The notes: generated by a model not told the origin, from the letters alone. A stretch of 64,000 nt of DNA from a virus (IMGVR_UViG_3300042462_000689), one strand, 5' to 3'. Shown: positions 1,859 through 30,909, counted from the first letter of the stretch. Translations and numbers: made by a program.

Positions 1859-3321
1859 GCAACAAGCTGATTAAAAATTCCGTCCACAGCTTCCTGCGGG
1901 CCAATCGGGAGCTGTTCGAAATGCATGTGCTGGCGTCCGTCTGGTGGGACCAGAAGTTCTTCATGCGCGTGATGCCGATGCTCTGCCGAGGACCCGATGA
2001 GAAGACACCCTGGACGGATGATTTCTCCGATCCAAAGCGCTCGGCCGTCTATCGCGCCATGTACGACTACAACATGGCCTGGATGAGCACCAACCGCGAT
2101 CCGAAGGCCAGGCTGCAGCCCATCGACATCGGCACGCTGCAAGGCTACCTGGTGTCGTATGCGCAGGCGGGACACACGCTGACCGAGGACGAGGTGATGC
2201 CGGCGGTGCAGATTTGGGTACAGGCCTGCACCATGGCCCAGGCTGTGAACATGCAGTTCATGAATCTGGCGGTGGGAGCTTGGATGGAAAGCCAACGGAC
2301 TGAGGGAATGCTGAAGCGTCGGCTGAGCACGCGGAACTTTGAGGGCATGGTGGATCAGCTGGCAAAGATGAAGGCAGCCATGCAGCCCAAGGGGGAGCGG
2401 AATCAAATCTTTGGATTCGGACATGGCATCGACAACGAGCAGCTGGAGGTCATGCGTACGCCCACGCATTTCAAACCATTGGACCGGGCGCTGGGCGGGG
2501 GATTCGGGCAGGGGGAAGGGTCGCTCATCATCGCGGCCACCGGCGGGGGCAAGACGGTGTTTGCCACCCAAATGGCGGCGCTGATGTCCATGAATGGGGC
2601 CCGCGGCGTGTTCATTTCCACGGAGCAGCCGTTCCAGGAGTTGGAACCCCGCATCGTGTCGGCAATATGCCATGTGCCGTTCGACACGATCAAGGACCGG
2701 GTGGTTACGACAAAATTCGAGAGAGACCAATTGATGGAATATGCAAAACTGCGCGAGAGGCTGACCGCCAAAACCTTCTCCTTTGTGAACTGGGATGCCG
2801 ATTCGGAAACGGATGTGATGGCGGAAGTGGACTCGATCGTCGAACGCGCCGGCTCCACCATGGGCGGCGTGGATTACCTGATCTTTGACTGGTTGGGGAA
2901 GGCCCTTGGGAAAAATGTGATGCATGATCCCGCGCGGTATCGGCTGGCCCTGCTCTCAGGTGCCACTGCAATCGTGGAGATGGCGAAGAAATACAAGCTG
3001 AGCGCCATTGCCATGGCCCAGGGGCATCCGGGACGTTGCAAAAACAATCCTCGGGTGGATTCCACCTGCCTGACGGAATGTCTCACGCTTGGCAATGACA
3101 TGACCACCATCGTCGGAATCACCACGATGCTGAAGCCGGAGACAGAAAAGAAAACATGGGAGGCAAAGGATGAACCCACCTTTGAGGAAAAGCAGTCCTT
3201 CTACATGGGGAAGGCGCGCAAATCGCAGGCCTGCAAAGTGCCCGTGGTGCGGGACTTCGGATATCAAAGGTTCCGCCAATTTACCGCGGCGGACTTCAAC
3301 AAATACAAACAAGAGAAATGA
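1855..3321 (+). CDS. DnaB-like (SF4) replicative helicase
   Basis: Walker A AATGGGKT, FISTEQ (H1a), YLIFDW (Walker B), C-terminal GKARK; 488 aa in replication cluster. Confidence 0.85.
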   Translation: MSNKLIKNSVHSFLRANRELFEMHVLASVWWDQKFFMRVMPMLCRGPDEKTPWTDDFSDPKRSAVYRAMYDYNMAWMSTNRDPKARLQPIDIGTLQGYLVSYAQAGHTLTEDEVMPAVQIWVQACTMAQAVNMQFMNLAVGAWMESQRTEGMLKRRLSTRNFEGMVDQLAKMKAAMQPKGERNQIFGFGHGIDNEQLEVMRTPTHFKPLDRALGGGFGQGEGSLIIAATGGGKTVFATQMAALMSMNGARGVFISTEQPFQELEPRIVSAICHVPFDTIKDRVVTTKFERDQLMEYAKLRERLTAKTFSFVNWDADSETDVMAEVDSIVERAGSTMGGVDYLIFDWLGKALGKNVMHDPARYRLALLSGATAIVEMAKKYKLSAIAMAQGHPGRCKNNPRVDSTCLTECLTLGNDMTTIVGITTMLKPETEKKTWEAKDEPTFEEKQSFYMGKARKSQACKVPVVRDFGYQRFRQFTAADFNKYKQEK

Positions 3322-10436: not shown

Positions 10437-13400
10437 ATGAGTGAAAAACTACAAAGCCCCACGCCCGCCCCTGGCGAAATTGAAATCGGCATGCCGACCA
10501 GCCTTGTCGCCCGCAATAAAAAGGTGGGGGATCGGCTGCTGGTCGCCGGCGAGGGCAAAATCCCGGCCGAGATCATGTTCGTGGCTACGGCGGTGGATGA
10601 GGACGAGGCCGTGGACCATATCAAGGGCTCCTACGGGCGCACCATCCCTCAGCGCGCCCGGTATCTGAAGGGAGCCGCCGGATGCATCCTCTCGGACATC
10701 CTGGCCTCCATCGGCATTGACATCTACGACCACTACTACACGGCGGTCATCAAATGGCTGCTGCCTCGACAGGATCGCAATCGCCCCAAGCAGACGCTCG
10801 TCGCGCAATCCATGCCCATCCTGCTGGACGAGATCAAACGGGTGCAGCCGAAGATCATAGTCACGTTCGGCAAGGTGGCATTCGATGCCGTGTTTCCGAA
10901 CCGGATGAAATTCGACTCGGTGAGGGCGGGCTGGTTCTACTCCGAGCAGCACGAGGCCAAAATCTTTGTGATGCAGGATGTCAGGAAGCCGGTTTATGAG
11001 CCGGCGCAAATCGAGGCGTTCCGCATGGAGCTGCTGGAATTGCGCAAGATGCTGGATGAGACCAGGGGAATTGAAGTGGTCAAATCGCCGGAGGATTACC
11101 AAATCATCTCCACACCAGACCAATTGGTTGAGTTCACCAAAATGCTCGCCGGGGAGAAACAGCATCTCCTATCGGTGGACTGCGAGTTCGGCGGCAGGAA
11201 TCACGTCGATGGGAGGCTGCGCTCGCTGCAAATGGAATGGACGCCAGGACGGGCACGCTATATCCGGCTGATGGATGACAAGCTGAACATTGCCTTCCCA
11301 GGGGGATACGAGGCTGCCGGTCAAATCCTCCAACCGCATTGCAATGACCCCAAGACCAAATACATCGGCTACCATATCTCCGCGGATTTGCCGTGGATGC
11401 ATACGTGGTTGGGCTTGGACTGGTATCAAAAGGCAATGATCGATGTGGAAGGTGCGCAGCAGGTGCTCGATGAGAATGCCGAATTGGGATTGGAGAGGCT
11501 GGCGTTGCAATACACAGCACTGGGACGCTACGACATCCCATTGGAGCTTTGGAAGTTGGATAATCGGGAGAAGGTCTCGGACGACCTGGGCTACCTGCTG
11601 ATCCCGGACGAGATCCTCGTGCCCTACGCATTAAAGGATGTGTCTGCGCCGATGATCGCCGCCCCACAGATCATCAAGCGCCTGATGTCCGACAAGACCT
11701 GGGAGTATTACCGGGACTACCGGCATCACCTCGTCACAGACATCTTCACGCAATTTGCTTTGCTGGGACTGCCAATTAATAAAGCTAAAATAGATATCCT
11801 CCGCGACCTCTACAGCTACGCGCGTGAGCTGCTGGAGAAGAAATTCATCCACGAGTTGCGGATTGAGTCCGGGCAATTGCTGCTGAAGGCGATGCTCTCC
11901 GCATCCAAGGACCCGAAATGCTTTGGCGTGTATCAGGAGATCCTGACCATGGCGGCTGAGGGCCATCACGTGGAGGCGGAGGCGCGGTTGAAGGAGTTCG
12001 TGATGCCTGATCTTGATCTGATCAAGCATACGACATCCAAACAGGATTTTGAGATGGCAAAGGCCATGGCCGCGGAGACGGAGAAGAAAGTACTGCCGGC
12101 GCTGCATCATTTCCTGGAAGCCCCCAATTTCAATGTGCGGTCGGCGGACTGCAAGAAGCGGTGGCTGTTCGACGTCAAAGGCATGACGCCCGTAAAGACC
12201 ACCAATCGCAAGGAGGCGGGGCTGCCATCAATTCCATGGAGCCGCGTGCAGAATCTGCCGCCCCACATCGCGGCGCAATACGCCCCGGCCTGCGACAAGC
12301 AGACGCTCAAGATGCTGGCGGATGACACGCAGGATGCATTGCTGCGGCGGATGCTGGACATGCTCGCCGTGGGCAATATTGCGAAGTCATGCTTCAAGCA
12401 GCCGCAGGTGGATGAGTTTACGGGGGAGATCGTGAAGGAGAATGGGTTGCACACCTGGATTGCGGGCGATGGGTACATCCATCCAAATAATTCTGTGACT
12501 GAAACGGGGCGTCCTCGGGGTTGGAAGCCAAACTACTTAAACTGGGCCAAATATATTCATAAAGGCGTGGCTCGGGGGATTGCTGAGGTATTGAAGGAGC
12601 AGCATGATATCGGCGAATTGCCCGAGAAATTTCAAGTGTTCCTGGATCCAGATGCGATCCCAAGCGTGCGTAGTATTGTAGATGTTACGGAACTGCCTCC
12701 GCTCGAAGGGTCCGTTGGCTGGTGCTTTAGTGACAGCGATTTCGCTACGGCAGAAATTAGATCTATGGCGTTTTTGAGCGGGGATGAGAACCTGATCCGC
12801 TTGATGACGGAACCGGACGATCAGTTTGGGTTGGCAAAAGTGAAGGATAAAAAGCATTCGATTCGTTTGCGTTATGCTTCCGACTGCGGCATTGATGAAA
12901 AGAACTGGAGATCTGAATTCATTCTGACTTCAGCGACCAATGGAAAAATAGAGGCGCGTGTCTCGTGGGCTGAATTGCTGCGCAAAGATGGAAAGCTAAT
13001 TCATCCGCCACATGATTTGCACTGGTCACTGGTGGAGTGGGTGCAAAACAATCCACGCGAACTGTTCGACGCCGAGATCGATCGCGGCGGCACGGGCAAG
13101 CCAGGGAATTTCTGCATCGCCGAAGATGAACTCGTGCTGACCGGTCGCGGGTGGATAGCAATTCAGAATGTTCTTGGTTGCGATGTCCTATGGGACGGCG
13201 TAGCGTGGGTCCATCATGAAGGACTCAAATACAACGGAATTGCTGAAGTGCGAAACTACCAGGGATTGCGCGCGACCGACGGACACGAAGTTTGGGATCG
13301 AGACGGAAGAAAAATCTACTTCGGGCAGGCGCGCACACAACAAATTGAACTTGCCTCAATTGGTGGAGCGGGCCAAAAAATTGAATGTGCCTGGCCTGAT

Positions 13401-14696
13401 AGTTTTCCCCGAAACGATTCACAGAACGGGGTCGGGATACTTTCACCTGATGACGCAATGCACTTTGTGCGGAAAACAACTGGAGAAAGAGATCCGGAAT
13501 TTGGAGCAGGGTTTTTCCAGCAAGTGCCATTGTCAGAGGCTGGGGGCGCGTGCGGCGTACGGCGTAGCGCGACCGTTGACGAAGACGCTCGGCACTCGAT
13601 ACAATGCGATGATGCAGCGCTGCTACAAAGACACGCACGTGTCGTCGTACAATTACAAGATGCGCGGCATTCAAGTGTTGTTCAAATCTCGCCGGGATTT
13701 TGTGACGTGGGCGTTGGAGAAATGGCCGGAGGAGACATTCAAGAAAAAGGACTTCGACAGGATCGACAACGACGGACATTACTCGAAAGAGAATCTTCGG
13801 TTGGTGGATCGTCGGACGAATTTGTTGAATCGGAGAAGACCCAAAGATGTGGACATTCAGACCGCACGGGACTTCATGGCACGGCATCCCGAGGTGAATT
13901 ACACGGCGACCACGTGCTACGGGTTATTCCGGCTGGGCATGAGCGAGTATCAAATACTGGAACGCCACAGGAACAGCAGCAAGGCAGGGTGGAGAAAGTC
14001 AGGGTCTACGACATCATAAACGCGGGGCCGCGAAATAGGTTTGTGTGCTCCGGGATACTTGTGTCGAATTCCACCTCGTACGGAGCTACAGCGAGCACGC
14101 TGGATCGTCAAATCAAAGCCATCATTGGCAAGTCACCACCAGAAGGCACAGGGCAAGGTATTTTGGATGCCCTTCGACGCAGACAGCCCGTGGCGGTGGA
14201 ATGGCTGGAGGCGCTTGCGGAAATACCAGGATCACAATATCCGGAATACCAATTGGAGTCGGGGCAGAAGCGAAGGTTCCATGCCCACCGTTCATTTGTT
14301 CGAGGGATGGATGAAAGGACCAAGAACAGCATCCTCTCCGGATTGAGCAGACAGGCGCGAAATTTTCCGAACCAAGCCATCGTGGCCGATACATCGACGA
14401 AAGCGGTGAAGAATCTGATGGCGTATTACCGGCAGTATGGATTTCGGTCCTACCCGCTGGTGATTTTATACGACTCCGTGGTGAGCTGTGGTCCCGTGGA
14501 AGAGCGGTTCCATGTGGCAGCGGCGCATCAGCGATTCATGACGACGGAAAACTGCTGGCATAACCACGGTAGGACTTGGAATTTTCCGATCGACACCGGC
14601 TTCACATTGGCGTGGGGATCGAAGCCCTCAGATGATATGAAAAAGAAACTCAACGACAAGACTTGGCACAGCGAGGCCCCATGGCTCAAGCTCTGA
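10437..14696 (+). CDS. polA: Family A DNA polymerase with N-terminal UDG-like domain, 3'-5' exonuclease and an intein
   Basis: UDG-family-4-like N-terminus (GEGKIPAEIMFV...EIKRVQPKIIVTFGKVA); Exo I VDCE, Exo II YHISAD, Exo III YALKD; motif A DSDFATAEIR; motif B K..NF/STSYG interrupted by intein; motif C LYDS. Confidence 0.9.
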   Translation: MSEKLQSPTPAPGEIEIGMPTSLVARNKKVGDRLLVAGEGKIPAEIMFVATAVDEDEAVDHIKGSYGRTIPQRARYLKGAAGCILSDILASIGIDIYDHYYTAVIKWLLPRQDRNRPKQTLVAQSMPILLDEIKRVQPKIIVTFGKVAFDAVFPNRMKFDSVRAGWFYSEQHEAKIFVMQDVRKPVYEPAQIEAFRMELLELRKMLDETRGIEVVKSPEDYQIISTPDQLVEFTKMLAGEKQHLLSVDCEFGGRNHVDGRLRSLQMEWTPGRARYIRLMDDKLNIAFPGGYEAAGQILQPHCNDPKTKYIGYHISADLPWMHTWLGLDWYQKAMIDVEGAQQVLDENAELGLERLALQYTALGRYDIPLELWKLDNREKVSDDLGYLLIPDEILVPYALKDVSAPMIAAPQIIKRLMSDKTWEYYRDYRHHLVTDIFTQFALLGLPINKAKIDILRDLYSYARELLEKKFIHELRIESGQLLLKAMLSASKDPKCFGVYQEILTMAAEGHHVEAEARLKEFVMPDLDLIKHTTSKQDFEMAKAMAAETEKKVLPALHHFLEAPNFNVRSADCKKRWLFDVKGMTPVKTTNRKEAGLPSIPWSRVQNLPPHIAAQYAPACDKQTLKMLADDTQDALLRRMLDMLAVGNIAKSCFKQPQVDEFTGEIVKENGLHTWIAGDGYIHPNNSVTETGRPRGWKPNYLNWAKYIHKGVARGIAEVLKEQHDIGELPEKFQVFLDPDAIPSVRSIVDVTELPPLEGSVGWCFSDSDFATAEIRSMAFLSGDENLIRLMTEPDDQFGLAKVKDKKHSIRLRYASDCGIDEKNWRSEFILTSATNGKIEARVSWAELLRKDGKLIHPPHDLHWSLVEWVQNNPRELFDAEIDRGGTGKPGNFCIAEDELVLTGRGWIAIQNVLGCDVLWDGVAWVHHEGLKYNGIAEVRNYQGLRATDGHEVWDRDGRKIYFGQARTQQIELASIGGAGQKIECAWPDSFPRNDSQNGVGILSPDDAMHFVRKTTGERDPEFGAGFFQQVPLSEAGGACGVRRSATVDEDARHSIQCDDAALLQRHARVVVQLQDARHSSVVQISPGFCDVGVGEMAGGDIQEKGLRQDRQRRTLLERESSVGGSSDEFVESEKTQRCGHSDRTGLHGTASRGELHGDHVLRVIPAGHERVSNTGTPQEQQQGRVEKVRVYDIINAGPRNRFVCSGILVSNSTSYGATASTLDRQIKAIIGKSPPEGTGQGILDALRRRQPVAVEWLEALAEIPGSQYPEYQLESGQKRRFHAHRSFVRGMDERTKNSILSGLSRQARNFPNQAIVADTSTKAVKNLMAYYRQYGFRSYPLVILYDSVVSCGPVEERFHVAAAHQRFMTTENCWHNHGRTWNFPIDTGFTLAWGSKPSDDMKKKLNDKTWHSEAPWLKL
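13113..14069 (+). mobile_element. Intein (319 aa) in PolA motif B
   Basis: Starts CIAEDELVLT (block A), ATDGHEVW (block B TxxH), ends KVRVYDIINAGPRNRFVCSGILVSN followed by extein Ser; removal restores GKPGNF-STSYGA. Confidence 0.92.
13216..14019 (+). CDS. HNH/His-Me finger homing endonuclease nested out of frame (+1) inside the intein
   Basis: CTLCG..CHC Zn motif, RYNAMMQRCY...YKMRGIQV, DRIDNDGHYSKENLRLVDRRTNLLN; true start uncertain. Confidence 0.85.
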   Translation: MKDSNTTELLKCETTRDCARPTDTKFGIETEEKSTSGRRAHNKLNLPQLVERAKKLNVPGLIVFPETIHRTGSGYFHLMTQCTLCGKQLEKEIRNLEQGFSSKCHCQRLGARAAYGVARPLTKTLGTRYNAMMQRCYKDTHVSSYNYKMRGIQVLFKSRRDFVTWALEKWPEETFKKKDFDRIDNDGHYSKENLRLVDRRTNLLNRRRPKDVDIQTARDFMARHPEVNYTATTCYGLFRLGMSEYQILERHRNSSKAGWRKSGSTTS

Positions 14697-14767: not shown

Positions 14768-16618
14768 ATGAGTAACCAAGCACCAACAGCACCACACGCC
14801 CCCGGATCAGCACCCACAGCACCCGGCGGCCCTGAAAAGAAAAAGTTCAAGAAGACAGGCAACGAGTTCGTCGACGGCCTGAACGACTTCGACTTCGAGT
14901 TAGGAACGCGGTTCTTCCAGGATCACGTCCTCGGCGCCACCCCCAGCGGCAAGTTCGCCGTGGATGGTCGCATCCTGCCAGCGCGGAATCCTGCGCTGAT
15001 CGGAAAGCCCGAATACGCGACGTCCTACATTCCGTATCGCCACTGCAATACGGCGAACCTCGTGGACCAATCGCTGCTCGACGCGGATCGCAATGTACCC
15101 AAGACGACAAATTTCTTCGTCGGGATGCTGGCCGTCCGCAGGTACGGCAGCAATGCGCCCCGGCATGACATCGTCTCTCCACGCACGCGAAAGGTGTATC
15201 CGGGATTCAAGGCCGGTCCGGATGATCTGGCCTGTCCGTTCATTGACATTCGCGCTTACGCCAAGAAACTGGCGGAGGATGACGAGTCGCTGGAGCATCT
15301 CTTGGAGGGTGATTTCGCCAATAAGATCGATCCCATCATTCCCAAGGTGAAGACGTTCTTGCTTTGCAATATGTGGGGCCTGGTCGGCACGGATGCCCAT
15401 CGCAACAATGCCTCGGAGAACTTCCTGGGCTACCTCACGGACTACGGGTTCAAGAACATGCTCGACCGGCTGACGTTCCCGCCGCAATACGGCACCACAT
15501 CCCGCGATCCCAATTTCCCTGAGTTCATGCTCGGGGACATCACGGATCCGAAGACCGGCCTTTGGGCCTGGGGGCAGCAGGTGCAGGAAGGCGTGACGAC
15601 CCCGTGGTCGTGGACGTTCTCCAAGAGCCCCAACACGCTGGATGGTAGCTCGGTCGTCGCGATGACGGACGAAATCTTGGCGAAGCGGTATGCACTGGAT
15701 CACACGCTGTTCAACATCCTGTCGTATCAGGAGATCGTGGACATCATCTGCGAGGACAAATCCATCCCGCACCGGTTCGTGGAGACGGCGTGCGCGCACA
15801 GGGCAAAGGTCACGGCGTACAAGGAGAACACCACATACTCGTTCGGCAATCCGGCGGCAAATGGCCCGAGTGCCGCGCCCGCAGGAAAGCTCTACTACGT
15901 GTTCAACGCAGGAGTGACGGATCCGACGCCGGTGACGCTCGCGCAGATCGTGGTGGTACTGCAGACCAAGCCGCAGGCGATGTTCTGTGAGAAGGGCAAG
16001 CAGGAATGGCAGACGGCGCAGCAGGTGCTGGCGTCCATGGTTCCCGCTGGTCCGGTCAATCAAGGCCCTCCGACCCCTCCGGCGGCCCCGCAATTGCCGA
16101 CTCCGCCGCAGGCTCCCTCGGCGCCCACGCCTCCGGTTCAGCCGACAGCGCCCACGCCACCGCCGCAACCAGCAGCCCCCGCCCCGCAACGGCCGGCCCC
16201 GCCGACGCCGCCAGCAGAGCCGACACCAGCCCCAGTCACACCCGCGGATACGCGGATGTTCTGGGTGTCGCAGGCCGGGAAGATGAGCGATGGATGTGTG
16301 AATGTCGCCGCCGCAAAGGATGTGGCGGCCAATGCACCGAAGGCTCTGTTCTGCGAGGATGGAACGGAGAAGTGGCAGACGGCCGCGCAGCTCGGATGGG
16401 CAGCAGCCCCCGCCGCAGCGCCCCAGCCGCCCACAGGTCCCACAGCCCCGCAGGCACCGGCGGCAGCCCCCGCAGAGGCAGCCCCCAACGGCATGACTCC
16501 TGAGGAGGCCGCGGAATACGATCAGCTCACCGCGGCGCTCGCCGTGCCGGGCGTGGTGCCTCAGATGGACCAGGTGACGCGCCTGATGGCGCTGGAGCAG
16601 AAGAAGTCCGGGAAGTAG
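14768..16618 (+). CDS. Putative ssDNA-binding/replication scaffold protein with Pro/Ala-rich linkers and two GYF_2-like modules
   Basis: Globular N-terminal ~350 aa, then two related modules ending MFCEKGKQEWQTA / LFCEDGTEKWQTA separated by Pro-rich linkers; position after polymerase; SSB role is inference. Confidence 0.45.
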   Translation: MSNQAPTAPHAPGSAPTAPGGPEKKKFKKTGNEFVDGLNDFDFELGTRFFQDHVLGATPSGKFAVDGRILPARNPALIGKPEYATSYIPYRHCNTANLVDQSLLDADRNVPKTTNFFVGMLAVRRYGSNAPRHDIVSPRTRKVYPGFKAGPDDLACPFIDIRAYAKKLAEDDESLEHLLEGDFANKIDPIIPKVKTFLLCNMWGLVGTDAHRNNASENFLGYLTDYGFKNMLDRLTFPPQYGTTSRDPNFPEFMLGDITDPKTGLWAWGQQVQEGVTTPWSWTFSKSPNTLDGSSVVAMTDEILAKRYALDHTLFNILSYQEIVDIICEDKSIPHRFVETACAHRAKVTAYKENTTYSFGNPAANGPSAAPAGKLYYVFNAGVTDPTPVTLAQIVVVLQTKPQAMFCEKGKQEWQTAQQVLASMVPAGPVNQGPPTPPAAPQLPTPPQAPSAPTPPVQPTAPTPPPQPAAPAPQRPAPPTPPAEPTPAPVTPADTRMFWVSQAGKMSDGCVNVAAAKDVAANAPKALFCEDGTEKWQTAAQLGWAAAPAAAPQPPTGPTAPQAPAAAPAEAAPNGMTPEEAAEYDQLTAALAVPGVVPQMDQVTRLMALEQKKSGK

Positions 16619-26175: not shown

Positions 26176-26761
26176 ATGCCGCCCGAACCCCCCTCACCGA
26201 AACCCACATCCGAATTCACCATATGGCATGGGATGTGGATCGTGATCGGGGTCATTGCCGTAGTGCACTTCATCCCACCGGTCCTGATCTGTTTGGGTGG
26301 GGGAATTGCGCTGGCGGCGGCGGGAGACAAGATCTGAAATGAAACTGACACTGACGATTCGTGAGCTGTCGAATTACAACTGGGACAAGGTGTGTGCCGT
26401 GACAGGGTTGAATCCCTGGTGCATGGCCGAGGGCCTCGCCTCCGGCGACGAGGCAGTCGAGCTGACGGAAGAGCAGGCGCGGGAGATTGGCGTGATGTCG
26501 AAGCGGGAGGAGTGAGCTTTGAAGTAAATACAAACCAGAAATCAAATGACCAATGCGCAAGGAATGATAATGCGGCGGGTGATCGCGGAGGGCGGCTCCT
26601 CACAAATCCGGCGCGGGTTCAAGACAATGATCGAATGGGAGCAAGGCAGGAAGCTCTGTGATGAAGGGCTGTTGTCCATTGTCACGCTGGATGCCGCGCC
26701 CATGTGGTGGACGATCACGCCGGCGGGACGGAAAGCCTGCGAGGAATACGGATTGAGTTGA
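26176..26761 (+). CDS. Three small ORFs (26176..26337 membrane peptide, 26339..26515, 26546..26761)
   Basis: Manual translation; first has hydrophobic stretch WIVIGVIAVVHFIPPVLICLGGGIALAAA. Confidence 0.55.
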
Positions 26762-26766
26762 GATTT

Positions 26767-26800
26767 GAAGGAGGGGCGAACGGGCGCCCCTCCTTCTTTA
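26767..26800 (+). terminator. Intrinsic terminator
   Basis: GAAGGAGGGGCG-AACGGG-CGCCCCTCCTTC-TTTA. Confidence 0.65.
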
Positions 26801-26835
26801 CCTGGCGCATCTTTTGGGTATGCTGGTGGACGCAA

Positions 26836-29800
26836 ATGCCAACGGACAATTCACCAATCACCCTGCCCACCGGCGTCGTCCTGCGCGCCCCGGAGGATTT
26901 CGACACCCTGCGCACCAGCATTTACGACACCGCGAAGAAGGGCCTGGAATCCTCCTTTCCGACGTCCTACAACGGCGTGCGCATGGAATTGAAGGACGTG
27001 CATTACGCCGATCCGGATGACTTCCCGCTGGATGTGCAAAAGCAGGCCATGCTCACGGACAAATCCCTCGGCCGCCGGCTGCGGGGCTCCGTGCATCTCT
27101 ACGATGACAATACCGGCGACCTGCTGGACAAGCGGGACATGACGCTGATGACGGTGCCGCATATGACTGAGCGGGGCACGTTCGTGAACGCGGGCAGTGA
27201 CTACGCGCATGTAAATCAGGCCAGGCTCTTGCACGGCGCCTACAGCCGCCGGATGCAGAATGGCAACCTGAGCACTTCCGTGAACGCCAAGACCGGCACC
27301 GGTCCCGCCTTCCAGGTCGAGTTCGAGCCGACGACGGCGCAATACCGGATGCACATCCGCGGCAGCAATCTGCATCTCTATTCCCTGCTCCATGACATCG
27401 GCATCCCCGATGAGCAATTGGAGAAGACCTGGGGCCCTGAGCTGCTGGATCGTAATCGAAAGAAATACGACGCGCGGGTCATTAGCAAAGCCTACGAGCA
27501 TTTGGTCGCCCCCCGACACAAGCTGCCCGAGCACACACCCGAGGATCGCGTCAAAGCCATCCATACGGCATTGGACTCCGTGCGGGTGCACCGGGATGCC
27601 ATCGGCAAAACGCTGCCGGTCCTGCTCGGCGGCAAATCAGCCACGGCATGGCGGGCGAAGATGAGCGTCCGGCAGGCCGACTTCGAAAAGGAAATCTTCG
27701 CCCCTTCAATTCCACCACATGAGGCAATGGGCATGGGATTTGAAATGGCGCACCCGGAGATCTTTTTTGAGGTCGCCGGGGATTGTGAAGTGCCGGTGTT
27801 TGAAAAGCTGGCCAGCGCCAAATCCGAATCCGAAGCCAAAGGCTTTGAACCCGACCTGGATGCCGATGGTATGCGCGAGGCCTACAATGCCGTGTATGCC
27901 AAGGCAGGCCCGCGGCTGGCAGGCATGAAGCAATGGCCGAAGCACTGGTTTACGGACGAGGGCGATCCGCTCGGCTGGATTTCGTGGTATTGTCGATACG
28001 CCGATGGAGCGCGCGGTCCGGACGACGAGCGTCAAATCAACCGCTGGAAATCCTTCAAGGCGCGCAGCGTGCCACGCTTCATCAAGAACCCCACAGCCCG
28101 GCAGGCATTTGCGCTGCGGTATTGGGCAATCGACCCGCTGCCGCTGATTACGGATGCCGATGCACGGAAGCAATTGAAGGAGGACATGAAGGAGCACCAG
28201 GCGGCGGAGATGCGGAAGTTCTCGGAGCGGGCGTGTGATGATTATCCCAAATTGGAGCGTGAGAAGGAGGCCAGTGTGTTGGCGGTTGGTGTTGTCCCTC
28301 CGCCCAGAGACCTACCCGAATGGCAACTCGGCCTCATCAAATACGCACGGGCAAATGCGCCCAAGGATCCGGAGAAGCCCAATCCTGAATACAAGGGATG
28401 CCTGATGGCCCGACTGCAATTGTCCGACGCGAAGAAGATCATCGAATGGGCCGAGGAGAACATCCCGGAAGATCAATTGGCGGAGGACGGATTTGAACGC
28501 GAAATTCACTGTACAGCCCTATTCGGGATCCATCAAAGCGTCACGAAGGAGCTGCTCGAATCCGCCGTGAAGGAAATCATGAAGGACGCCGGCGGTTCGC
28601 TGATCCTGCAATTGAAGGAGATCCATCGGTTTCCTGCCAGCGAGCATCGCAACAGCGACGTCATTGTCCTGAAGTGCGAGTCGCCGTGGCTGGAGGAATT
28701 GCACTACGGGCTGATCGAGAAGCTGGGGGACAAGGTGCAGGTCACGTATCCTGATTACACCCCACATGTCACCGTGGCATACGTTAAGCCCGGAGCATTG
28801 AAGCATCTCGATGACAGCCAGGTGTTCGATGGGCAATTGCTGCCGCTGAGTCCTTTGATTTACTCGATTGCGGATCGCACTGCGAAACATGAAATTGAGA
28901 TGTTCGATTCCAAGATGGAAAAGGACGCAGCGGAAGTTCCAATGTTTGGGGATCAGCCGGCCCATGAGGTCGTCAGTCCCGGCGGGGCTCGCTCATCTCA
29001 TCAATTCACGACCAGCAGCGGGTCTCGTTATATCATGGGCGAGGATGGTTCTTCCCGCAGAATTAAGTCCTTCCATGCCAACACAGGTGGGGCAGATGTA
29101 GGCTTGAAACCGTGGCAGGAGAACATCCGATTTGTAGACCCGAAGAATCCTCATTTTTCTACAGACGTCGGGCGACTTCAAGAGTTGGGGCATCACGTGC
29201 ATCTGGCCCCAAGTGGCGAACAAATGGGTGTGAATATTTATGACCAGGCCGCGCAGAAGTGGAGGCCTGCTACTATTGCAGATGCGAGACCGAAGGCTGT
29301 CGCGGCCGGAATCCTCAAAGGCGGAGAGGCACCGCTGCGCGCGGGGATATCGGCAATCCCACAGCCAGGATCGCACGTGCTGGAGTGGAACAATCATTCC
29401 GACGGGCGCCTAAAGAGCGTACACCCCGGCAGCCCGGTTGCACAGACGGAGTGGGCAAGGCCGCCTGCGGCGACCACAACCCCAGCCACCCCAGCCCCAG
29501 CGCCTGCGTCAGCCGCCGCCCCAGCCGCCGCCCCAGCCGCCGCCAATGCCGTCACGGCCACCAAAGCGGTAGCTCCAATTGCGCCAGCCGCCTCAGCCGC
29601 CCCAACCGGCCTCAAACCTCTTGCGGCTCTAAAGGGTACTGCTGGCGCTCTCGATGGGGGTGCGGTGAGGGCGGCAGGTCGGGCCTTGGGAACTGGTGTA
29701 AAGATTGTTGGTGCGGTTGCCAGGCCCTTGTCTGCCATCACCACAGTAAATGACCTTTATCAATCAGCGACGAATCCTAGAGGTGCTGCAAAAGATTTTA

Positions 29801-30909
29801 ATGACAATTGGAATAAGGCAGGCCCGATCGGCCGTACGCTGTCCGTGATCGGCAGTCCAATTGCAGCGCTGAATGCGCAGGCTGAGAATCACGAGGAGAA
29901 TCGGGACCGGCTGCAAGACGCCCAACGTAGAAGCTCAATTCTTCCGATTCATCCACCGGACCCGGTATTCCCTCGACCTACGCAGCAATCAGATCCAAGA
30001 GCATTAACCCCGAGACCCCGCCCAGCACCGACGCCAGCACCGACGCCAGCACCGACGCCAGCCGTCCCCCCGGCACCCAAACCCACAACTCCGACCGGTT
30101 CTGGTTTTGTAGGGGCGCCACCCATTCCCAAACCTCCAGCGCCAGAACCCATCATGGCCGGGGGTCTCAGCAAGACCACCACGCCGTCGATCGGCAAGAT
30201 CGCCGCTGCCCAGCAAGGCTGGCCTCCAGTCGCTATACAGGAACTTCAGGCACGCTTCGCCGCTGACCAGAAAGCACGCGCGGGTGTCAATCCAACCACC
30301 ATGACTGCAGAAGCCGCACAACAGACGGAATCGGGCATGGCGAAAACGGATCGCGACAACACGGCATGGCTTCAATCCAACATCGGAAAATACGGCTGGC
30401 CCACTGGCGCCCCCGCGAATCAGGCTTGGTTGCTGGCACAGCATGCGGATCACGATCCGAAGTTTCAGGCCGTCGTGTTGGAGAAGATGCAGGCTGTGTC
30501 GAAGAATCTCCAACATCCGGAGCATCTGTCCAACGTGGCGTATCTGACGGACCGAGTGGCCGTGAATAATAAACAACCGCAGCTTTACGGCACGCAACTG
30601 AATCATCAGTGGGATCCCGTGAAAAACACATTTTCGAATCCGACACCGCACCCAATTAGCGATGCCGCAAACTTGGATGCGCGACGTAAGTCCATGGGGA
30701 TGGGACCGCACGTCGATTATTTGAAAACGCGTGCACCTGCCGCACCCGCCCCTACTCCCACGCCACAGCCCGCAGCACCGCCAGCTTCTGCACCGCCGCC
30801 GACACCCAGCGGGACAGTACCGAAAGCGCCCACCGCTCCCATGTCGTCAATTAAGGGTGTGCCGGGTGCAGTAAAATCCGCAGCCGCAAATGCAGAGGAT
30901 TCCAAATGA
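26836..30909 (+). CDS. Multidomain polyprotein: RNA polymerase beta N-terminal fragment + unknown DPxGW domain + Acb1-like 2H phosphodiesterase + Pro/Ala linkers + DUF6624-like domain
   Basis: VPHMTERGTFVNAGSDYAHVNQARLLHGAY matches RpoB IPLMTxxGTFxINGxERVxVSQLxRSPG; HCTA and DYTPHVTV 2H motifs; YGWP...AWLLAQHAD...AYLTDRVAVN...QLYGTQ; start reassigned to caaATG 26836. Confidence 0.8.
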   Translation: MPTDNSPITLPTGVVLRAPEDFDTLRTSIYDTAKKGLESSFPTSYNGVRMELKDVHYADPDDFPLDVQKQAMLTDKSLGRRLRGSVHLYDDNTGDLLDKRDMTLMTVPHMTERGTFVNAGSDYAHVNQARLLHGAYSRRMQNGNLSTSVNAKTGTGPAFQVEFEPTTAQYRMHIRGSNLHLYSLLHDIGIPDEQLEKTWGPELLDRNRKKYDARVISKAYEHLVAPRHKLPEHTPEDRVKAIHTALDSVRVHRDAIGKTLPVLLGGKSATAWRAKMSVRQADFEKEIFAPSIPPHEAMGMGFEMAHPEIFFEVAGDCEVPVFEKLASAKSESEAKGFEPDLDADGMREAYNAVYAKAGPRLAGMKQWPKHWFTDEGDPLGWISWYCRYADGARGPDDERQINRWKSFKARSVPRFIKNPTARQAFALRYWAIDPLPLITDADARKQLKEDMKEHQAAEMRKFSERACDDYPKLEREKEASVLAVGVVPPPRDLPEWQLGLIKYARANAPKDPEKPNPEYKGCLMARLQLSDAKKIIEWAEENIPEDQLAEDGFEREIHCTALFGIHQSVTKELLESAVKEIMKDAGGSLILQLKEIHRFPASEHRNSDVIVLKCESPWLEELHYGLIEKLGDKVQVTYPDYTPHVTVAYVKPGALKHLDDSQVFDGQLLPLSPLIYSIADRTAKHEIEMFDSKMEKDAAEVPMFGDQPAHEVVSPGGARSSHQFTTSSGSRYIMGEDGSSRRIKSFHANTGGADVGLKPWQENIRFVDPKNPHFSTDVGRLQELGHHVHLAPSGEQMGVNIYDQAAQKWRPATIADARPKAVAAGILKGGEAPLRAGISAIPQPGSHVLEWNNHSDGRLKSVHPGSPVAQTEWARPPAATTTPATPAPAPASAAAPAAAPAAANAVTATKAVAPIAPAASAAPTGLKPLAALKGTAGALDGGAVRAAGRALGTGVKIVGAVARPLSAITTVNDLYQSATNPRGAAKDFNDNWNKAGPIGRTLSVIGSPIAALNAQAENHEENRDRLQDAQRRSSILPIHPPDPVFPRPTQQSDPRALTPRPRPAPTPAPTPAPTPAVPPAPKPTTPTGSGFVGAPPIPKPPAPEPIMAGGLSKTTTPSIGKIAAAQQGWPPVAIQELQARFAADQKARAGVNPTTMTAEAAQQTESGMAKTDRDNTAWLQSNIGKYGWPTGAPANQAWLLAQHADHDPKFQAVVLEKMQAVSKNLQHPEHLSNVAYLTDRVAVNNKQPQLYGTQLNHQWDPVKNTFSNPTPHPISDAANLDARRKSMGMGPHVDYLKTRAPAAPAPTPTPQPAAPPASAPPPTPSGTVPKAPTAPMSSIKGVPGAVKSAAANAEDSK

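Follow-up and report, generated by a model that had tools for sequence, protein, structure and literature searches.

The textbook intein joins a splicing domain and a homing endonuclease in a single reading frame. A 64,000-nucleotide stretch of DNA from the virus IMGVR_UViG_3300042462_000689 (the window, analyzed here at its full length) raises the question of what an intein is when its own frame holds splicing blocks around a featureless center and another frame of the same DNA encodes a protein resembling an endonuclease. A first-pass annotation, made from the sequence alone, had pointed to this arrangement in the virus's gene for DNA polymerase. Here, we report that the element is probably a mobile class-1 intein in PolA motif B, built as a two-frame module in which frame 0 supplies the splicing ends and the +1 frame supplies a putative nuclease lying over the tether between them. 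The anatomy of the element, selection in both of its frames, its recurrence in other phages, and alleles empty of it were observed; the folds of both products were predicted by modeling.

In the mechanism proposed for this module, the two ends of the intein (~80 and ~30 residues) would fold as a mini-intein (Hint) domain and splice the polymerase together, and the ~205 residues between the Hint halves would be a stop-free, disordered tether and nothing more. The central DNA would also be read in the +1 frame, from an internal ATG at 13216, to give a separate 267-amino-acid (aa) protein with a zinc ribbon and an HNH-like core. That protein would cut or nick intein-less polymerase alleles, driving the copying of the whole element.

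The virus record is complete (185,656 bp, with direct terminal repeats); the window corresponds to its positions 76271 to 140270, and its sequence was present across many lake-water metagenome runs. The polymerase precursor (Table 1) carried the Pfam domains PF03167, PF01612, and PF00476 (partial) and matched phrog_17 (E value, 1.3e-33). Frame 0 was uninterrupted over 10437 to 14696, so the gene is not of the split (fractured) type. An intein-less homolog, L087, gave a Pfam DNA_pol_A match (E value, 5.8e-22) that crosses the insertion point, which places the insertion site inside the polymerase domain, at motif B.

The intein was as first described: its coordinates, its length of 319 aa, Cys1, the TxxH motif of block B (T55 and H58), the terminal Ser-Asn, and the Ser at +1 were all verified, as was the splitting of motif B. 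Cys1, TxxH, the terminal Asn, and the +1 Ser, together with a Hint fold in the model and an in-frame site for which intein-less alleles exist, identify it as class 1. The C terminus reads VYDIINAGPRNRF...VSN, followed by Ser at +1. Residues C1, T55, H58, D300, and N319 were invariant across 25 relatives, and VYDIxNAGPRxRF, in the C-terminal splicing half, was kept across the intein family. In an AlphaFold model built with the 25-relative alignment, pLDDT (predicted local distance difference test score) was 91 to 98 for residues 1 to 80 and 290 to 319 and ~40 for residues 85 to 289. A structural search with this model returned only inteins or Hint domains as top PDB matches (NpuDnaE, Ssp DnaB mini-intein, and gp41-1), with a probability of 1.00 and a template modeling score by target of 0.53 for NpuDnaE (4kl5_A). 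The frame-0 center had no match in Pfam or PHROG, and the frame-0 intein as a whole matched an unnamed PHROG family alone, limited to the N-terminal splicing part. The center, first noted as reading like unconstrained sequence, is poorly conserved and predicted to be disordered, and it is held free of stops. The phage genome holds one copy of the intein and one of the HNH gene. Judged by its residues and context, the intein probably splices the polymerase in cis.

The +1 frame is open from 13204 onward, and the third sense frame carries 15 stops. The TAA of the +1 ORF falls within intein block F (VYDII/NAGP), where it had been placed by the first-pass annotation, and the motifs named for its product were found: CxxC at aa 82 to 85, CxC at aa 104 to 106, QRCY, NYKMRGI, and DRIDNDGHY. 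Two PHROG families of HNH endonucleases matched the product (phrog_374, E value of 3.6e-21; phrog_3377, E value of 3e-19), and the endonuclease VII family matched weakly (phrog_1035, E value of 0.0011); Pfam gave no match for either frame of the intein. The protein family retains the Cys4 zinc ribbon, QRC, NYGxRGI, D181-R182-I-D, Y189, and N193, with D181, R182, Y189, and N193 invariant in relatives. Its AlphaFold2 model had a mean pLDDT of 79.9, was confident over aa 41 to 256, and was disordered over residues 1 to 35; strands in the zinc-ribbon region (residues 61 to 92) had pLDDT values of >90, and the predicted core comprised a strand at 178 to 182, a strand at 194 to 198, and a helix at 199 to 204. 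Foldseek with the whole model against PDB gave nothing at an E value of ≤0.001, and searching PDB sequences with a profile built from the 24 HNH-like proteins yielded chance zinc-ribbon matches alone (E value, >0.6). Against BFVD, 67 matches were found at an E value of ≤0.001, mostly phage proteins named HNH endonuclease. D181 and N193 are probable metal ligands, and C82, C85, C104, and C106 are probable zinc ligands. We call the protein HNH-like, which falls short of proven membership of the HNH family. A 220-codon open frame lies antisense to this ORF (13225 to 13887, minus strand) and is probably a by-product of codon bias.

Table 1. Positions in the window of the polymerase precursor, its intein, and the ORF overprinted on the intein
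Feature	Coordinates	Strand	Description
Polymerase precursor ORF	10437-14696	+	1419 aa; uracil-DNA glycosylase (UDG)-like domain, 3'-5' exonuclease, family A polymerase; interrupted by the intein
Class-1 intein	13113-14069	+	319 aa, in PolA motif B between GKPGNF and STSYGA; Cys at 13113, Asn at 14067-14069
N-terminal splicing half	13113-13352	+	Residues 1-80, blocks A and B; AlphaFold2 pLDDT 96-98
Frame-0 linker	13365-13979	+	Residues 85-289; open, weakly conserved, predicted disordered, pLDDT ~40
C-terminal splicing half	13980-14069	+	Residues 290-319, blocks F and G, ending V-S-N, +1 Ser at 14070; pLDDT 91-97
+1-frame ORF	13216-14019	+	267 codons and TAA (14017-14019); HNH-like (beta-beta-alpha-metal) homing-endonuclease candidate
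Likely start codon of the +1 ORF	13216-13218	+	ATG within CAT GAA (His-Glu), intein residues 35-36, codon 34.3
Cys4 zinc ribbon of the +1 product	13459-13533	+	C82, C85, C104, C106; ≥90% conserved in 24 relatives
Beta-beta-alpha core of the +1 product	13747-13830	+	aa 178-205: FDRID...Y189...N193-L-R-L-V...helix with N202 and N205

The same layout recurs in other phages. Searches by tblastn with both frames recovered it: with the +1 product, hits lay in the DNA polymerase genes of Salmonella phage vB_SenS-Ent1, of phages related to it, and of EBPR siphovirus 2, and with the frame-0 intein, a Streptococcus phage was hit. In all three, the polymerase frame runs through the intein and an HNH-like ORF of 195 to 257 codons lies in another frame. 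The Ent1 intein (HE775250; L002:2382-3278), long known as the polymerase intein of Jerseyviruses, carries the annotation "encoding splicing domains" and no more; it holds an unannotated 247-codon HNH-like ORF (2474 to 3217) in the +2 frame, with an ATG led by a Shine-Dalgarno (SD) sequence. A 247-aa "uncharacterized protein" of Salmonella phage LPSE1 in BFVD matches the window's +1 product and may be the Ent1-type ORF.

A scan of IMG/VR with the HNH alignment gave 80 loci, 24 of which have the HNH ORF nested in a same-strand ORF of 695 to 1468 aa; the remaining 56 are free-standing HNH relatives. Every one of the 24 carries the same intein family (CIAEGxLVLT...WDGVEWV...ATPDH and VYDIxNAGPRHRFTV...[HS]N), with the HNH frame in the +1 register, like the window, in 23 and in the +2 register, like Ent1 and EBPR siphovirus 2, in one (L055). 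Close polymerase relatives in viral contigs were found only with an alignment that included L005, a single-protein search having returned none; they contributed four nested loci from the polymerase family to which the window belongs (not counting L086, which is the L005 contig). The two-frame layout was found in 32 other phage loci altogether, and close and distant homologs alike keep the HNH-like frame open, so the stops that might have broken the +1 frame in relatives are absent.

A trivial origin of the layout, in which a pair of assembly or sequencing indels put the parts of a conventional in-frame HNH intein into different frames, was considered, and nothing in its favor was found. Two compensating indels would be required. 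Contigs of four other lake-water runs had no indel in the region and at most 2 substitutions each, with one contig spanning all 1601 bases; some runs leave short parts of the region uncovered and are uninformative there. Another 32 independent loci show this layout too, and stops are depleted in their frame 0. The frame-merging indel that the first-pass annotation had named as refuting its reading did not appear in these contigs, and we regard an artifact as refuted, with a negligible chance of being correct. None of the refuting outcomes named in that annotation was seen, and its core reading, a spliceable intein with central DNA that is also read in a second frame as the mobility gene, is supported.

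Given the HNH-like protein, an open frame 0 lies far outside chance. The HNH protein was held fixed and its synonymous codons were redrawn from the polymerase's own usage (20,000 draws). Frame 0 of the window was stop-free in 0 of 20,000 resamplings (mean, 10.7 stops), and the frame-0 linker has 0 stops against 7 to 11 expected. Because no resampling yields a stop-free frame 0, it is evidently kept open by selection. The probability of an open frame 0 was likewise small in the Streptococcus phage (0 of 20,000), Ent1 (0.0012), and EBPR siphovirus 2 (0.009). In the +1 register, each frame-0 codon takes its first base from position 3 of an HNH codon and its other two from positions 1 and 2 of the HNH codon that follows; since stops begin with T and NNT/NNC are always synonymous, any frame-0 stop can be removed at no amino acid cost. 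The idea that the +1 register is the commonest (25:3 among 28 loci) through being the cheapest was rejected, as the +2 register expects fewer stops (1.4 to 4.2); shared ancestry and query bias more likely explain the excess. Selection toward low hydrophobicity of the frame-0 product was not seen, the observed values lying on both sides of the resampled expectation.

The HNH frame is the better conserved of the two. For 259 pairs of nested loci with 30 to 95% HNH identity, the aligned DNA was read in each of the two frames, and the HNH frame had the higher identity in every pair (mean, 0.42 versus 0.22 for frame 0); differences per site by HNH codon position 1/2/3 were 0.46/0.40/0.64. The alignments were built on the HNH proteins, which gives some advantage to that frame; the codon-position pattern in near-identical pairs is independent of alignment, and for L011 and L013 it was 0.042/0.021/0.183. 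The window's closest relative, L089, shares its insertion point, its length of 319 aa, and its start position; across the center, their identity is 54% for the +1 frame and 27% for frame 0, with HNH codon-position differences of 0.39/0.24/0.64. One population single-nucleotide polymorphism, 13413 A>G in a single low-depth contig, is synonymous in the +1 frame and replaces Asn with Asp in frame 0. On the evidence of these sequences, both frames are kept by selection.

The load of double coding is light. The DNA of the structured nuclease (aa 41 to 256; 13336 to 13983) overlies that of the intein tether (residues 85 to 289; 13365 to 13979), and splicing-block DNA is overlapped by the flexible ends of the +1 product. 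Because the structured nuclease sits on the disordered tether, two folded proteins barely share nucleotides. The estimate of about 800 dual-coding nucleotides holds for the two open frames, and the part constrained in both is small.

Alleles with and without the intein occur side by side. Within the window's polymerase family, L085, L087, and L092 are empty at the site and read KVGNFSSAYGAS; the insertion falls at GNF^S in the window and L089 and, one residue further on, at GNFS^S in L086, L088, and L091, with exteins that are otherwise near-identical. The two insertion points one residue apart, each with a +1 Ser, suggest independent invasions or a shift in target register. Elsewhere, the same intein-HNH module was found in other PolA subfamilies, in PolA motif A, in P-loop genes, and in two further contexts. 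By locus, the sites lie after a P-loop-like GK[DT] in L016, L020, and L024, after PDV[TV] in L010, L017, and L027, and at DASQIE^C (motif A) in L023; L062 is a further one.

In a tree of the HNH proteins, 27 of 28 nested genes fell in one group (Shimodaira-Hasegawa-like approximate likelihood ratio test [SH-aLRT], 93), and the nested or free label changed 3 times, compared with 22.9 in shuffles. The two "free" genes within the nested group are L030 and L050, which have a split (fractured-gene) layout: in both (L030:2400-3800 and L050:2400-3500), the N-terminal part of the polymerase runs with the N-terminal intein half to a stop, followed by the HNH gene (+1) and then by the C-terminal intein half with the C-terminal part of the polymerase (+2). 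These two may represent natural split inteins that arose from the contiguous form, or the contiguous form may have arisen from split ones. Identity in the splicing domain and in the HNH protein rose together (Spearman, 0.50 over 378 pairs), a correlation that hints only weakly at co-inheritance because the pairs are non-independent. From homology and from this distribution, we infer that the +1 product is a homing endonuclease, with both nuclease and homing activity.

How the +1 ORF is translated had been left by the first-pass annotation as a choice between an internal start and a frameshift, and its relatives favor the former. In 12 loci of the +1 register, an ATG at intein codon 48.3 to 49.3 stands behind a strong SD (duplex energy down to −12.9 kcal/mol). 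Both signals are made from splicing codons: the SD derives from the Lys-Glu-Val codons of the conserved G.KEVI.Y block, Lys-Glu-Val giving AAGGAGGT, and the ATG derives from TAT (Tyr) followed by a G-starting codon (Gly, Asp, or Glu). Nine of the 12 loci have a +1-frame stop one or two codons ahead of this ATG, which indicates internal initiation; a frameshift fusion would have no space to form. Programmed +1 frameshifting, by which the HNH-like protein would be made as a fusion to the N-extein and the N-terminal half of the intein, draws some support from the window itself, where the +1 frame is open from 13204, four codons ahead of the ATG, and no SD is present. Those nine relatives speak against it, as do the first 35 residues of the +1 product, which are unstructured in the model and conserved only where the intein is, and we consider frameshifting very unlikely. 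Internal initiation is the best explanation and would apply to this phage too, judging by the family, the integrity of the ORF, and its conservation. Past the upstream +1-frame stop, no start codon comes before the candidate ATG at 13216, which lies four codons after the opening at 13204; at intein codon 34.3 an ATG is also the first in L005 and L089 and is present in L014, L020, and L027. A sigma-70-like site at 13576 to 13605 was rejected as a start signal, as it lies inside the ORF and is no more than is seen in shuffles.

Several points, given in this paragraph and the next, weigh against a working two-frame module in this phage. The penultimate residue of the intein is Ser rather than His, likewise in several relatives. 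Among the signs of selection, the count of T at the HNH third position before AA/AG/GA codons in the +1 loci (0 of 1218, versus 860 of 3357 [25.6%] elsewhere) measures the size of the bias and is no test of it, because the loci were picked for an open frame 0; the independent test of frame-0 openness is the resampling. As first noted, no SD precedes the ATG at 13216 (duplex, −3.3 kcal/mol). A promoter scan found no promoter-like site upstream of it, both the SD and the ATG are gone from the window at codon 48.3 (GCT GAA GTG ... TAC CAG), and none of the runs listed as RNA contained this stretch. The +1 ORF could accordingly be a fossil here, the element having become a mini-intein with a long tether and an endonuclease gene that is no longer expressed; the loss of the family's SD-plus-ATG and the lack of an SD or promoter-like site at 13216 would fit. 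The 267-codon ORF is nevertheless intact and retains every family-invariant residue, and change relative to L089 is biased to third positions (54% versus 27% identity). Ordinary genes of this phage are likewise without an SD: the 34 likely gene starts in the window have mostly A/C-rich leaders, few with any SD, which suggests that the phage's host uses SD-independent initiation. The missing SD at 13216 says little, because most genes of this phage lack one. Taken with the intact ORF, this leaves a fossil quite unlikely. Leaders of the same kind, such as AACCAA before ATG, mostly with no SD, characterize this 186-kb lake-water phage in general.

The chemistry of the +1 product is the other matter to be weighed. 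No Pfam HNH model matched it, and Pfam HNH_3 touched only 2 of 24 relatives (E value, 0.0027). The position of the general-base His of HNH enzymes is an invariant Arg in the family (D181-R182-I-D), and His188, in DGHY, is unconserved, being Asn or Gly in Ent1, EBPR siphovirus 2, and L089. Of the first-pass claim of an HNH nuclease, the ORF and its named motifs were confirmed, and the canonical histidine is absent; because that histidine is missing, "nuclease" is used here as a putative label. The protein might instead be an HNH-derived DNA-binding or regulatory protein, with any mobility coming from elsewhere, and the invariant Arg and the lack of a Pfam HNH match would suit that view. An exhaustive structural comparison with VIA-align placed PacI (3m7k_A) first (Z score of 6.5, root mean square deviation of 2.4 Å over 74 residues, model residues 117 to 207), a modest match, as an unrelated chain reaches a Z score of 6.2. 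PacI is an active HNH enzyme with a tyrosine positioned as general base and Asp and Asn holding the metal (PMC4081073). The match is to the predicted beta-beta-alpha core, and PacI too has Cys4 zinc sites and no general-base His; it differs in being a 142-aa restriction enzyme and not a homing endonuclease, with 18% identity over the 74 residues. Because PacI, the best solved match, is active with Tyr in place of His and with Asp and Asn on the metal, and because D181, Y189, and N193 are invariant in the +1 family, PacI-like chemistry via these three residues is plausible by analogy. The presence and absence of the element among near-identical polymerase alleles and its spread to several genes also fit an active homing element, and we think a non-nuclease role unlikely.

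A stronger form of the two-frame reading holds that the intein and the overprinted HNH-like gene are a co-adapted, long-lived mobile module and not a chance, transient invasion, with SD and ATG written into splicing codons and the folded nuclease placed over the disordered tether. In this view, the module has moved as a unit among five or more sites in polymerase and P-loop genes and has passed between contiguous and split layouts, and its nuclease is a His-less, PacI-like one. We put this forward tentatively, at somewhat under an even chance. If true, the lineage would be the largest known of dual-coding inteins and a natural system for studying two proteins that share one stretch of DNA. The two-frame module itself offers a stable alternative to in-frame fusion, in which the endonuclease stays a separate gene overprinted on the intein tether, and the lineage supports the view of intein origins in which the splicing domain came first and the endonuclease invaded later. 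The lineage links contiguous inteins to split ones, because both belong to one clade. It also accounts for the annotation of such inteins as lacking an endonuclease, as with the "splicing domains" of Ent1, and it supplies parts for protein engineering in the form of compact mini-inteins that tolerate a disordered insert of 200 residues.

Two other genes of the window were recorded. The gene after the polymerase (14768 to 16618, plus strand) encodes 616 aa with a Pro/Ala-rich, low-complexity C-terminal half and has no Pfam match. A 1401-aa protein (26704 to 30909, plus strand) contains an Acb1-like/2H-phosphoesterase region (residues 574 to 696; PF23474; E value, 3.5e-6) and a C-terminal DUF6624, and an anti-CBASS (cyclic-oligonucleotide-based antiphage signaling system) function embedded in this giant protein is possible, going by its domains.

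Whether the arrangement had been described could not be settled by the first-pass annotation; it has been, for other endonuclease families. Actinophage inteins with an endonuclease in a separate frame include an endonuclease VII-like enzyme in "frame 3," as well as antisense LAGLIDADG and Vsr-like enzymes, and an origin by free-standing endonuclease genes invading inteins was proposed for them (bioRxiv 10.1101/2025.01.02.630785). As in the window, the splicing blocks of those inteins are in the extein frame, the center is stop-free and structureless, and another frame of that strand carries an entire endonuclease ORF. The nuclease differs, matching T4 endonuclease VII over residues 1 to 67 in the preprint and being a zinc-ribbon protein with a DRID-type HNH-like core in the window. 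So does the register ("frame 3" in the preprint; +1, or frame 2, in the window; +2 in Ent1, EBPR siphovirus 2, and L055), and so do the hosts, which are those of actinophages in the preprint and of lake-water, Salmonella, Streptococcus, and other phages in the present lineage. We found no per-frame selection test or start-signal test in that preprint. The title of a 2026 preprint announces an out-of-frame endonuclease in the cyanobacterial dnaX intein.

Two further systems bear comparison. The ShiLan insertion, in the DNA methylase of a phage, hides an HNH endonuclease out of frame (Arsenault et al. 2025, PMC11855218). In both cases, an essential phage gene contains an in-frame insertion free of stops on which an HNH ORF is overprinted, and no ribosome-binding site was seen in ShiLan; that insertion, however, has no splicing domains and stays as a loop in the mature protein, whereas the insertion in the window has a complete Hint domain on its flanks and is expected to splice out. 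In fractured genes, the intein is split, and a free-standing endonuclease gene lies between its two parts (Dassa et al. 2009, PMC2677866). They share with the present lineage a separate endonuclease gene between intein halves, and L030 and L050 have exactly the split layout; in contrast, the window's intein is contiguous, its host frame is unbroken, and the endonucleases of the fractured genes are Vsr-like. Because the 2025 preprint described out-of-frame intein endonucleases, the concept is no longer new, and what sets the present lineage apart is its nuclease family, its register, its hosts, and its breadth.

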